Source of the DNA: a virus
Taxonomy: Duplodnaviria > Caudoviricetes
IMG/VR virus record: IMGVR_UViG_3300005662_000021
Coordinates: 32,001 to 96,000 of that record
Strand: one strand, 5' to 3'
Length of the DNA stretch: 64,000 nt
The notes beneath the pieces were generated by a model. The model ran no database searches and was not told the DNA's origin. It saw only the letters and a list, made by a program, of their open reading frames with translations. Positions 5,084-39,883 of this stretch are shown here, piece after piece. Positions within the stretch are counted from its first letter, which is position 1, and each line of letters opens with the position of its first letter. A program made the position numbers and the translations under genes.

Positions 5084-6487
5084 ATGAACTTCTTAGACGC
5101 ATTACAAACAGAAGATACCTTAACTGAAAATGGTATGGTTACAAATTCATCAACTCTTAACGAGTGTGTGAATCTATTCTTCACCATTGGAGCAATGAGA
5201 GGACAAGACAAAGAAAGATTGTTAAGTCTATTCTCAAAGGCTTTCATTGAGAATCCTCAGACTGCATTGCGTATATTATTTTGGGCAAGAGATGTTCGTG
5301 GTGGTGCTGGTGAAAGACAAATATTCCGTGATATAATCCAACTCTTAGCAGAGGTGGCACCAGAAGTATTGGCGAAGAATATTAAATTCATTCCTGAATT
5401 CGGTCGTTGGGACGATATTACAGTCCTATTCAATACAAAAGTGAATGACGATGCGATTAACACAATAGTACAAGGTTTAGAAGCCAAAAATGGACTATGT
5501 GCAAAGTGGATGCCAAGAAAAGGAGTTATTTTTAACTCAATCAGGAAGGTTATGGGTCTTACACCAAAAACATTACGTAAAATGTTGGTAGTTCTTTCCA
5601 AAACGGTCGAGCAAAAGATGTGTGCTAACGAGTGGACAAATATTGAATACTCAAAAGTACCATCTTTGGCTATGGCTCGATACACCAAAGCATTCTCTAA
5701 ACACGATTTAACTGGTTTTGGAGTATACTTGGAATCATTGAAAAAAGGTGAGACTAAAGTAAACGCTGGGGCTGTATATCCATATGATATAGTTAAAACT
5801 TTGGGGCAAGGTGTCAAAGATTTGGCTGTAGAACAATGGAAAGCTCTTCCCAACTTTATGGAAGGAAGTACCGAAAGAATTTTACCAGTAGTTGATGTAT
5901 CAGGTTCAATGTCTACTAGTGCTGGTAACAACAATAATCTATCTTGTATGGATGTTGCAGTATCATTGGGATTGTACATTTCAGAAAGAAATGAAGGTTC
6001 TTTTAAAGACTCTTTCATTACATTCTCTGAGAGACCAAAATTACAAAAGTTGAGTGGTAATCTATATAATAGATACATACAACTACGTACTGCTGATTGG
6101 GGTATGAGTACAAACTTGGAGTCTGTGTTCAAATTGATTCTAAACCAATCAATTAAACATAATGTACCTCAAAGTGAAATGCCGACCAAAATCCTTATCT
6201 TATCGGATATGGAATTTAATCAAGCAACTGGACGTAATAATTCCGCAATTCAAATGATTCGTAAAGAATATGAGAATAGTGGATATCAACTACCTGGTAT
6301 TATCTTTTGGAACATACAATCGAGAGGAGATAACTTCCCAGTTCGTTTTGATGAAAGTGGTACAGCGTTAATATCTGGTTTTAGTCCATCAATCTTGAAG
6401 TCAATTCTTGGGGGAAAAGAACTATCACCAATATTAATTATGAATGAAACCATCGAGTCCGAAAGATATAAGATGATAGAAGTTTAA
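5084..6487 (+). CDS. DUF2828 / TROVE(Ro60)-like protein with C-terminal vWA domain
   Basis: WARDVRGGAGER, EFGRWDD, AKWMPR, VVDVSGSM (MIDAS), ILSDMEFN; start moved to ATG 5084 because TTG 5027 lies in the promoter. Confidence 0.85.
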   Translation: MNFLDALQTEDTLTENGMVTNSSTLNECVNLFFTIGAMRGQDKERLLSLFSKAFIENPQTALRILFWARDVRGGAGERQIFRDIIQLLAEVAPEVLAKNIKFIPEFGRWDDITVLFNTKVNDDAINTIVQGLEAKNGLCAKWMPRKGVIFNSIRKVMGLTPKTLRKMLVVLSKTVEQKMCANEWTNIEYSKVPSLAMARYTKAFSKHDLTGFGVYLESLKKGETKVNAGAVYPYDIVKTLGQGVKDLAVEQWKALPNFMEGSTERILPVVDVSGSMSTSAGNNNNLSCMDVAVSLGLYISERNEGSFKDSFITFSERPKLQKLSGNLYNRYIQLRTADWGMSTNLESVFKLILNQSIKHNVPQSEMPTKILILSDMEFNQATGRNNSAIQMIRKEYENSGYQLPGIIFWNIQSRGDNFPVRFDESGTALISGFSPSILKSILGGKELSPILIMNETIESERYKMIEV

Positions 6488-6511
6488 AAAAATGGAAAAA
6501 TTGGTTTAAAA

Positions 6512-6663
6512 GGAATGATTACTGCAAAGTTAACACAACAAATCAATTAATCAAAATGGTAGCCGAGGATAGGTTCAAACCCTGTCACCCTCTGATAAGG
6601 AGGGGGGTTAGTCTCACTTTCCTAATCGCACGGGAATAAATTACTAACCAAAACCCATTCTGA
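6512..6663 (+). ncRNA. TROVE-adjacent motif RNA 1 (stem-ATTACTGCAA...stem-TGA)
   Basis: ggaatg/cattct closing stem inside a 14-bp outer stem (6494-6507 / 6663-6676); internal hairpins. Confidence 0.5.
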
Positions 6664-6731
6664 AACCAATTTTTCCTATTTTTTCTTGACTTAATGAAAC
6701 TTTTAAATTAATTTTACGTTATATAGAACAA

Positions 6732-6792
6732 AGGATAGATTCAGCAAACTAAAAAAATCAAAACTTGTAAATTTGAACAAAAACTATCCTGA
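6732..6792 (+). ncRNA. TROVE-adjacent motif RNA 2
   Basis: aggatag-ATTCAGCAA-A-rich loop-ctatcct-GA. Confidence 0.55.
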
Positions 6793-6808
6793 CAATTAAG
6801 GTTATAAC

Positions 6809-6860
6809 GAATGACTTCAGCAACTTAAAAAAGACAGCACATCTTAAAAAATCATTCCGA
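6809..6860 (+). ncRNA. TROVE-adjacent motif RNA 3
   Basis: gaatga-CTTCAGCAA-A-rich loop-tcattc-CGA. Confidence 0.55.
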
Positions 6861-38221: not shown

Positions 38222-38331
38222 AACTTTTTTTGATTAAATATAAATTAAAAAATGGTATTTTCAACTATGTGGGTATGACAAATTGTCAGTTATTAATTTT
38301 TTGAACCTGACATTATTGATTATAAATTCAA

Positions 38332-38820
38332 TTGGTATATATTTGGTATAAAATGAAGAAACATAAACTTATAAAAAAAATATTTATGAATAAGAAAGAA
38401 TTTTATAAAAGATTTGAAGAAATTGTAAACGAAATTTTTGGTGAAAATCAAAGACAATCCACATCAATGGATGGATTTTTTAAAGGATTAAATAATGAAA
38501 ATTTATCTGATGAAATAAAAAAAATCAGAGATTCAGTTAGAAAAAATAACGATGGTTTTTTTACATCCATTAGTTTTATTATAAATCCAAAAGAACAAGA
38601 AGTTGGTGAAAATTCTTTAAAGGATTTAAAGAATAAATTAGAACAATGTATTAAATCTCAAGAATTTGAAGAAGCTGCAAAACTTAGAGATAGAATTAAA
38701 CAAATGGAAAATAATTCATCTAAGGTTATGGATTTGAAAAAAGAAATGGAAATTGCTATTAAGGAACAAAATTTTGAAAGAGCAATTGAAATTAGAGATG
38801 AATTAAAAAAAATTAATTAA
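38332..38820 (+). CDS. protein with two UvrB/UvrC (UVR) coiled-coil motifs
   Basis: IKSQEFEEAAKLRDRI and IKEQNFERAIEIRDEL; true start may be 38386. Confidence 0.8.
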   Translation: MVYIWYKMKKHKLIKKIFMNKKEFYKRFEEIVNEIFGENQRQSTSMDGFFKGLNNENLSDEIKKIRDSVRKNNDGFFTSISFIINPKEQEVGENSLKDLKNKLEQCIKSQEFEEAAKLRDRIKQMENNSSKVMDLKKEMEIAIKEQNFERAIEIRDELKKIN

Positions 38821-38863
38821 ATTTGACCCCTCAATTACGAGGGGTTTTTTAAATCAAAAAAAT

Positions 38864-39109
38864 ATGGCAATTTTAAGAGAAGAAATTAATGGTTCTAAAA
38901 TTATTAATGAAATACAATCAAGTAATATTAGAAAAACAGAATTTGATACTGAATCAAAAGAATTAGTTGTGGAATTTAACAACGGACTAAGATATTTGTA
39001 TGAAAATGTACCTCATCAAGTCTATACTCAATTCAGAATGTCTGAATCCCAAGGTAAGTTTTTCAATTCCAAAATCGCTAAAACTTATCAGTACAAAAAA
39101 TTGATATAA
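38864..39109 (+). CDS. KTSC domain protein
   Basis: SSNIRK..FD..LVVEFNNG..Y.YENVP..S.GKFFN. Confidence 0.85.
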   Translation: MAILREEINGSKIINEIQSSNIRKTEFDTESKELVVEFNNGLRYLYENVPHQVYTQFRMSESQGKFFNSKIAKTYQYKKLI

Positions 39110-39112
39110 TTA

Positions 39113-39883
39113 TTGTGGAAACACAAATATTTATCAATAATGGAAAGTTTAAATAAAGTAATATCAAGTTTTAATTTACAAAATACTCTCCAACCAAAAA
39201 TATGGTTAGGTGAGAATCAAAAAATGAATCCAAAAGTCAGACAGAACTTATTGGAAATAGCATATCAATTCATTGATTCTTTTGGTTTGGATGTTGTAAT
39301 TGATGACATCATTGTAACAGGTTCAATCGCAAACTATAATTGGTCTGAATATTCAGATGTGGATTTACATATATTAGTAGATTATAATCAGTTCCCAAAA
39401 GAAATGAAAGATGTTTACGTTGAATATTTTGATTTAAAAAAGATAGTTTTTAATCAAAAAAGAAATTTAAAAATGTTTGGATTTGATGTTGAAGTTTTTG
39501 TTGAGGACAACGATGTTAAAGGTATTAGTGGTGGATTATATTCAATATTAAATGATGAATGGATTAAGAAACCCCAAAAAGAAAAATTCAAAGTAGAAAA
39601 GAGTGAGATTATTAAAAACGCAAAAAAATGGATGCGTTTAATTGATAATCTAATAAAACATTTGAATGGTGAAGACATTGAAACTATTCGTAATAGTGTG
39701 AAAGTAATTAAAGATAAATTAAAGAAATATAGAGTTAGTGGTTTGAATAAAGGTGGTGAGTTAGGATTGGAAAATTTAGTGTTTAAAGTTTTGAGAAGAA
39801 ATGGTTATATTGAAAAATTATATAATATCCCTATGGATATTATTGATAAAAAACTTTCTTTAGATGAAAAATTAAAGAATTAA
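39113..39883 (+). CDS. Pol-beta-superfamily nucleotidyltransferase
   Basis: VTGSIANYNW..SDVDLH, FDVEVFVE; start may be 39140. Confidence 0.75.
   Translation: MWKHKYLSIMESLNKVISSFNLQNTLQPKIWLGENQKMNPKVRQNLLEIAYQFIDSFGLDVVIDDIIVTGSIANYNWSEYSDVDLHILVDYNQFPKEMKDVYVEYFDLKKIVFNQKRNLKMFGFDVEVFVEDNDVKGISGGLYSILNDEWIKKPQKEKFKVEKSEIIKNAKKWMRLIDNLIKHLNGEDIETIRNSVKVIKDKLKKYRVSGLNKGGELGLENLVFKVLRRNGYIEKLYNIPMDIIDKKLSLDEKLKN

Follow-up and report, generated by a model that had tools for sequence, protein, structure and literature searches.

We analysed a window of 64,000 nucleotides, the whole stretch from position 32,001 to 96,000 of the IMG/VR virus record IMGVR_UViG_3300005662_000021 (Duplodnaviria; Caudoviricetes); all coordinates are those of this window. 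Between 5084 and 39883 lie a Ro60-like gene followed by small RNAs, a long tRNA array, genes with predicted roles in RNA repair, a transfer-messenger RNA (tmRNA), and a ClpC-type unfoldase. An earlier note on this DNA had read these elements as a candidate for one integrated RNA-repair and translation-rescue system. The parts that it named are all present within one region, and profile, tRNA, and Rfam matches confirm each of them. The named translation and repair genes are 7 of about 50 open reading frames (ORFs) in the 35-kb interval, on both strands and in several predicted transcription units; the other ORFs encode homing endonucleases, an SGNH hydrolase, a protein with a type IX secretion system (T9SS) tail, peptidases, and products without assignment. 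The main features, with identities and strands as directly observed, are the following.

5084..6487 (+): Ro60-like ring protein, 467 aa, DUF2828 + DUF7788/vWA, phrog_850; accessory, subclade-restricted
6512..6661 (+): motif RNA 1, stem with TACTGCAA core and a long insert; likely partner of the Ro60-like protein
6733..6790 (+): motif RNA 2, stem with TTCAGCAA core
6809..6857 (+): motif RNA 3, stem with TTCAGCAA core
7095..23442 (+): tRNA array with 22 canonical-looking tRNAs, two atypical Ile-like genes, one doubtful Gln, and about 28 interleaved accessory ORFs
23960..24382 (+): cREC (PF20274), receiver-like, predicted to process cyclic phosphates; accessory
24385..24966 (+): HD hydrolase of the RelA/SpoT/Mesh1 (small alarmone hydrolase) type, HD_4; recent accessory gain
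27488..28498 (+): nick-sealing RNA ligase of the Rnl5 family (DRB0094/NgrRnl), PHA02142 + RNA_ligase; single-gene 1.0-kb indel
32994-33374 (-): one-piece tmRNA with G3-U70 acceptor, Rfam 84.6 bits; core
33284-33219 (-): tmRNA tag frame, encoding GNVINKLSAVGLIRAEEAVVA, 21 residues
34864..35682 (+): M28/M42-type peptidase; core
36191..38221 (-): ClpC-type unfoldase without N-domain, UVR middle domain, GTGVGF ClpP-docking-type loop; core
38353..38820 (+): small two-UVR protein, divergent from ClpC; homologues in most relatives
38864..39109 (+): KTSC-domain protein; core
39140..39883 (+): Pol-beta-superfamily nucleotidyltransferase, virus family phrog_36119, 247 aa; core

Distribution among related phages

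Nineteen related contigs (TerL 68-92% identical) were compared at full length; the near-identical G005, G013, and G014 were counted as one lineage. The genes for the M28 peptidase, ClpC, the KTSC protein, and the nucleotidyltransferase are found in 19/19 relatives at fixed sites 3-12 kb upstream of TerL, and bS21 in 18. This core block is kept in relatives with 0-8 tRNAs and no Ro-like gene. The complete genome G005 has it together with 7 tRNA calls, no Ro-like gene, and no Rnl5, and G004, G007, and G008 have it with 0-3 tRNA calls. The core block is independent of the repair genes.

The repair genes come and go singly. Among 17 distinct subclade haplotypes, anchored on a neutral neighbour gene at 26096, 7 carry both cREC and Rnl5, 8 cREC only, 1 the ligase only, and 1 neither (Fisher p=1.0). 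Rnl5 is an indel of exactly one gene, its neighbours being separated by 1024 nt where the ligase is present and by 24-25 nt where it is absent. The slot of cREC is without that gene in G020, whose Ro-like protein is 98% identical; G012 is without cREC and ligase, yet harbors the HD gene. The latter is confined to the sublineage of the window and was found near 0/36 other Rnl5 genes; six sampled HD homologues had no annotated repair neighbours. Only the window, G010, and G021 were seen to have the full set. The earlier note had taken independent distribution across relatives as the genomic half of its own refutation, and it is independent distribution that the repair genes display among close relatives.

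Since relatives swap the "repair" genes singly and keep the "rescue" genes without them, we read the region as a gene collection of a known kind and not as one system. With a probability of about 0.75, the 35-kb stretch is two things side by side, an accessory zone and a core block, and holds no single coordinated anti-defence system. The part from 5 to 29 kb would be a tRNA-array accessory zone and a hot spot of gene traffic, which cassettes enter and leave separately: tRNAs, tRNA shells (described below), cREC, the HD hydrolase, Rnl5, homing endonucleases, and dozens of unrelated small genes. Each accessory cassette probably confers its own small benefit. The part from 33 to 40 kb would be an ancient core block beside the head genes, in which the KTSC protein and the nucleotidyltransferase may have some core role. 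Within this collection there are two real pairings: the Ro60-fold protein with its CAGCAA RNAs, and the tmRNA, with a conserved non-host tag, beside ClpC.

Predicted chemistry of the accessory enzymes

The earlier note had proposed a chain that heals and seals broken RNA. As predicted from the families present, this chemistry is incomplete in the region, which has a nick-sealing Rnl5, no kinase, an HD protein of alarmone type, and a nucleotidyltransferase that is neither RlaP nor a CCA enzyme.

The ligase consists of an N-terminal OB module (PF21189) and a nucleotidyltransferase domain (PF09414) with no C-terminal appendage, as is characteristic of Rnl5. It matched TIGR02306 with 215 bits (cut-off 151) and NgrRnl from Naegleria over the full length (residues 3-334, E 5e-78). 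DraRnl and NgrRnl share these two domains and the full-length match (PMC4408790, PMC5397189); unlike them, the Rnl5 of the window is phage-encoded and a mobile single gene. Enzymes of this family seal 3'-OH/5'-phosphate nicks in duplexes and are "comparatively feeble" on single-stranded RNA, and the ligases that seal loop breaks are Rnl1 and Rnl4 (PMC4408790). The Rnl5 of Deinococcus has a DNA-repair role (PMC5397189). The window yielded no Rnl1, the loop-sealing ligase of the T4 type. Because anticodon nucleases leave 5'-OH ends (PMC7824862), tRNA repair would need a kinase; no 5'-kinase was detected in the window, nor in subclade contigs that jointly cover about -85 to +165 kb relative to TerL, and Rnl1, RtcB, and RlaP were likewise not found in the window and the subclade contigs searched.

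As a stand-alone HD domain, the HD protein carries the motifs of small alarmone hydrolases: H-x-x-Q-x-R-K, PY-x-x-H, HD-x-x-ED, and K-x-AD-x-x-x-N are invariant or near-invariant in 39 homologues. The match to HD_4 by sequence alone is below the Pfam cut-off; in a profile search, 21/21 PDB matches were of the RelA/SpoT/Mesh1 type. Small alarmone hydrolases can undo tRNA pyrophosphorylation by toxins (10.1101/2021.04.30.441581), and the reclassification of this gene bears on defences by toxic small alarmone synthetases (toxSAS). The predicted removal of pyrophosphate differs from the healing of cyclic phosphates. For the latter, cREC is the candidate (cREC_REC match E 2e-23; PF20274 83 bits, cut-off 27); cyclic-phosphate hydrolysis by cREC is itself a prediction (PMC7824862). 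In G023, the cREC gene (38228-38512) has an in-frame TAG inside the Pfam match.

The nucleotidyltransferase named in the earlier note is present and belongs to the Pol-beta superfamily, but its start is most likely the ATG at 39140 instead of 39113. NTP_transf_2 was found in 48/48 homologues. Neither PF10127 (RlaP) nor PolyA_pol/CCA was among the matches of the window protein or among the 25/33 families listed for the 48 homologues (E<=0.1). A model of the protein had no full-length match to solved structures (TM<0.3), and the matches listed in a VIA comparison were taken up by its helical bundle. In the Atlas, only viral proteins are among its structural neighbours, some of them with M23 peptidase or DUF5661 domains.

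All activities in this zone are predicted. The tRNAs would add or replace decoding capacity. The HD protein most likely acts on (p)ppGpp/(p)ppApp or on tRNA ends modified by toxins, stripping 3'-pyrophosphates; Rnl5 would seal 5'-phosphate nicks in duplex RNA or RNA:DNA, and cREC may open cyclic phosphates.

Phage T4 repairs tRNAs with Rnl1 and Pnkp against PrrC. The window phage is similar in that a ligase and candidate end-processing genes lie near tRNAs; it differs in having Rnl5 instead of Rnl1 and no kinase that we could find. A T4-like set occurs in the relative G005 (L332:12325-16917), where Rnl1, a calcineurin-like phosphoesterase, and a small kinase lie about 60 kb upstream of TerL; a second cREC-like gene is located about 3 kb beyond the Rnl1 group, all within 8 kb. 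In G043, Rnl1 adjoins a kinase. The repair genes are loosely linked at the family level, in agreement with Iyer et al. (PMC7824862), and each may be selected by host attack on translation, which suggests a shifting toolkit rather than a locus.

The tmRNA and the core block

The tmRNA has tRNA-like ends with G3-U70, an acceptor of the alanine type, and an open tag frame that ends in a stop. Full-length tmRNA was found in 30/31 records searched (28 above the Rfam cut-off); in 19 relatives its place is on the minority strand, 10-14 kb upstream of TerL, and the distance to ClpC on the same strand is 2-5 kb in 19/19. Tag conservation was observed directly: the tags of relatives have 21-22 residues with G-L at fixed positions, a final VA, and synonymous changes. 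The two Bacteroidota tags that were read (GNNYAFAA and GESNYALAA, 8-9 residues ending in AA) are unlike the phage tag. Phage tmRNAs were already known, and those of other large phages are one-piece as well (PMC4131195, PMC7162821); unlike them, the tmRNA described here is clade-universal and position-fixed, and has a conserved tag of 21-22 residues that resembles neither of the two host tags read.

ClpC has two AAA+ rings, a UVR middle domain, and a ClpP-docking loop. The N-terminal Clp repeat domain is missing, the first AAA module beginning about 20 residues in; the N-domain is missing from all 16 uninterrupted full-length relatives. In G008, G011, and G023, ClpC is interrupted, probably by introns or inteins. 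A comparison of ClpC with bacterial genomes revealed no donor among the matches listed. The neighbouring two-UVR protein is a candidate adaptor or inhibitor for the N-domain-less ClpC.

SmpB and ClpP were each encoded in 2/5 near-complete genomes only, and host partners are therefore usually needed. The phage SmpB genes are located at G008:138238-138636, about 7 kb from the tmRNA, and at G005:187024-187425. The tmRNA, with host SmpB, would free stalled ribosomes and add the phage-specific 21-residue tag, and the N-domain-less ClpC probably partners host ClpP. ClpC may plausibly read the tmRNA tag.

The Ro60-like protein and its RNAs

The earlier note's TROVE protein and motif RNAs were borne out. 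The predicted structure of the Ro60-like protein (pLDDT 78) is a HEAT-repeat ring closed by a vWA domain, and matches the Ro60 rings 9kop and 1yvr with TM 0.55-0.59. The 12 best distinct Foldseek matches are all Ro60 structures (E 3e-7 to 7e-5), the top one being the Ro60 of a Thermus phage. The gene is present in 7/7 subclade contigs that reach its site, and in 0/5 near-complete members of other clades.

Three stem RNAs with CAGCAA or CTGCAA sit 3' of the gene. Their linkage to it was observed directly across loci: a core of the CAGCAA type lies <=500 nt behind the Ro-like gene in 49/53 distinct loci, a density 30x background. The closing stem has varied base pairs across loci. The evidence for the stem rests on a pairing scan, which found it in 61/89 motif copies near a Ro-like gene vs 31/77 elsewhere; RNAalifold on a MAFFT alignment of the motif RNAs gave no consensus fold, and single copies did not fold better than shuffled sequences. 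Rfam gave no match to a Y RNA or YrlA (E<=5) beside the gene, and has no family that corresponds to the CAGCAA RNA.

The protein and its downstream RNAs are likely one real ribonucleoprotein unit, the particle itself being predicted. Ro60/Rsr with Y RNAs, and the Ro60 with Yrl1/2 of Thermus phage phiLo (PMC12135203), have the same HEAT ring and vWA fold, and there, as in the window, small structured RNAs are encoded next to the gene. Unlike these, the window protein belongs to the DUF2828 family (11-17% identity), its partner RNAs carry the CAGCAA core and match no Rfam family, and there is no rtcB linkage.

Transcription signals

The named genes lie on two strands, in separate units, and behind two upstream motifs to which we assign presumed roles. 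TAnnTTTG, which we take to be the Bacteroidota housekeeping -7 element, precedes the units leading into the Ro-like gene (3661), cREC-HD (23812), and Rnl5 (26998). The second motif, ATATTTAT, precedes the tmRNA, TerL, and the protease, and its place upstream of TerL and the protease makes it probably a late motif. It was also found 13-22 nt upstream of each of five homing-endonuclease-like ORFs. The KTSC gene has a match to TAnnTTTG, ClpC has neither motif, and the relatives are mixed; the two promoter classes, and the timing presumed from them, are therefore suggestive only.

Alternative explanations

A layered counter-defence that answers translation-targeting abortive infection (replace, decoy, heal, seal, rescue, degrade) and is selected and regulated as a unit would mean that the phage counters the shut-off of translation on six levels simultaneously. 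Such a system finds no support in the comparative data, and we consider it very improbable. All parts do lie intact within 35 kb, the full set recurs in G010 and G021, and the survey of jumbo phages by Iyer et al. (2021, PMC7824862) reads cREC-ligase links, phage Ro, tRNAs, and KTSC as counter-defence. However, a unit is already contradicted by independent gain and loss, and by core genes that persist without repair genes. The region has no detected 5'-kinase, a ligase family that is wrong for loop breaks, and HD and nucleotidyltransferase proteins that are not of repair types, and the genes occupy both strands and fall under two or more presumed promoter classes. That genes sit together near a tRNA array does not make them co-selected. 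What stands of the counter-defence idea is that each part plausibly helps translation under attack, and that ligase-cREC and ligase-kinase links recur in other phages; what fails is the single unit.

Other observations weigh against a mere coexistence of accessory zone and core block. An ATP-grasp RNA ligase of the Rnl1 or Rnl5 type occurs in 6/6 near-complete relatives, a kinase in 5/6, and cREC in 4/6, so repair capacity may be under genome-wide selection. Within 10 kb of 36 other Rnl5 genes, cREC was near 11/36 and a kinase near 9/36. HD and Rnl5 are associated at p=0.05, though confounded by shared ancestry, and we rejected this association as lineage-shared. Patchy presence is also expected from an arms race against differing host defences, and about 45 kb of the subclade genome is unsampled, spanning the site where G043 keeps Rnl1 and a kinase. 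A loose genome-wide toolkit, its parts kept by selection from translation-targeting host defences (anticodon nucleases, toxSAS, mRNA interferases) while strains carry interchangeable subsets, is possible, though we place it somewhat below even odds. It is compatible with the two-part reading, from which it departs solely by naming counter-defence as the common cause. The Rnl1- or Rnl5-type ligase in all six near-complete relatives, the 8-kb cluster of G005, and the ability of small alarmone hydrolases to reverse tRNA pyrophosphorylation (10.1101/2021.04.30.441581) favor it, but nutrient or stringent-response control, codon supply, and DNA repair, as for Rnl5 in Deinococcus (PMC5397189), explain the same genes. 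Less probable is a private rescue-degrade circuit, in which ClpC without its N-domain would recognise the phage tag, together with ClpP and perhaps with the peptidase or the UVR protein, and the phage would control the fate of stalled products. The constant spacing of tmRNA and ClpC on one strand, the long tag ending in VA when the two Bacteroidota tags are short and end in AA, and the consistent lack of the ClpC N-domain are consistent with it. Adjacency in the core block is weak evidence, however, because the KTSC gene, the nucleotidyltransferase, and several uncharacterised genes are equally linked, and SmpB and ClpP are each phage-encoded in only 2/5 near-complete genomes. A broader version is unlikely: all phages of the lineage would run a private trans-translation circuit with a 21-residue tag poorly read by host proteases and recognised by phage ClpC, to which the subclade would add a Ro60-like particle with CAGCAA RNAs and an alarmone hydrolase undoing toxin-made tRNA pyrophosphorylation. 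Two smaller leads emerge: a tmRNA found clade-wide, with a long tag of non-host type and next to a headless ClpC, and a Ro60-like protein that has an RNA motif of its own.

The nearest precedents are published. The repertoire of RNA repair and ribosome rescue in jumbo phages, and the counter-defence idea, are described in PMC7824862; tRNA sets, ATP-grasp ligase, cREC, ROT/TROVE, HD-like phosphatase, KTSC, and Pol-beta nucleotidyltransferases are shared with it. Unlike that repertoire, the region of the window has no detected kinase, RlaP, CCA enzyme, or RtcB, its ligase is Rnl5, and its KTSC and nucleotidyltransferase genes are core neighbours of the head block.

tRNA array and tRNA shells

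ARAGORN called 24 tRNA genes, and the near-complete set of the earlier note is confirmed with 22 canonical-looking tRNAs covering 19 amino acids. CCA is encoded in only 3/24 (Phe, Gly, Thr), most genes reading N73-CAA; since most are without encoded CCA, the phage tRNAs need a host CCA enzyme. Two Ile-like genes at 10040-10116 and 10130-10206 are atypical: their D arms are weak and their loops are TAT/GAT. In relatives, ARAGORN calls the counterparts Ile or Met. Full tRNA sets without a Ro-like gene occur in G040 (33 calls) and G043 (28 calls).

Six tRNA-shaped elements of 93-148 nt, here called shells, have the anticodon arm replaced. They correspond to the tRNA mimics of the earlier note: the elements exist, but "mimic" or "decoy" is an interpretation and not an observation.

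8446..8568 (+): tRNA shell 1; retains acceptor, D, and T arms but has the anticodon arm replaced
8887..9034 (+): tRNA shell 2
9248..9377 (+): tRNA shell 3
17688..17780 (+): tRNA shell 4
21437..21582 (+): tRNA shell 5
21684..21797 (+): tRNA shell 6

Between 0 and 9 shells were counted per genome, and shells are also found in genomes without a Ro-like gene.

A match to the Rfam freshwater-1 RNA (RF02979) at 19078-19139 (+), with 68.7 bits slightly below the cut-off of 72, sits in the structured spacer between tRNA-Tyr and tRNA-Gly. Within the array, 13223-14560 encodes a protein of 445 aa that has a signal-like N-terminus and, at its C-terminus, a T9SS sorting domain (TIGR04183); among the relatives, this protein is found at that site in G020 only. 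The homing-endonuclease-like ORFs, at 12016, 18198, 22165, 25106, and 32429, are strain-specific.

Phage lineage and flanking genes

The window comes from a large Bacteroidota lake phage of the bS21-type freshwater lineage. Its GC content is 31%, coding is mostly on one strand, and a public ENA contig of 295,135 bp (ERZ27247881 k141_159460) is identical to it across the 20,744 bases compared. With the Rnl1 of a relative as query, the best 120 matches included no protein from that contig, an uninformative negative. A DNA search in 401 Bacteroidota genomes, run with no positive control, was blank. The flanking genes include the following.

2972-3463 (-): HNH gene, just upstream of the tRNA zone
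43859: TerL
45827-48571: portal gene with intein; partial alignment only in most relatives
49306-49500 (-): bS21, within the terminase-portal-protease-capsid block; core

A prohead protease and a capsid gene are also in the window beside TerL, portal, and bS21. The reverse-strand bS21 lies among TerL, portal, protease, and the major capsid protein, an arrangement in the head-gene block that is typical of freshwater Bacteroidetes phages (Chen et al. 2022, PMC9723584). The bS21 myophages described there have the same arrangement, about 295 kb, about 31% GC, and 5-25 tRNAs, and a Clp protease was noted; the conserved tmRNA, its long tag, and the Ro-like module go beyond that description, and the paper was absent from the literature matches for tmRNA. 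The TerL of G023 is interrupted, probably by an intron or intein. In contrast to the mobile endonucleases, the HNH gene at 2972-3463 is conserved in most relatives.

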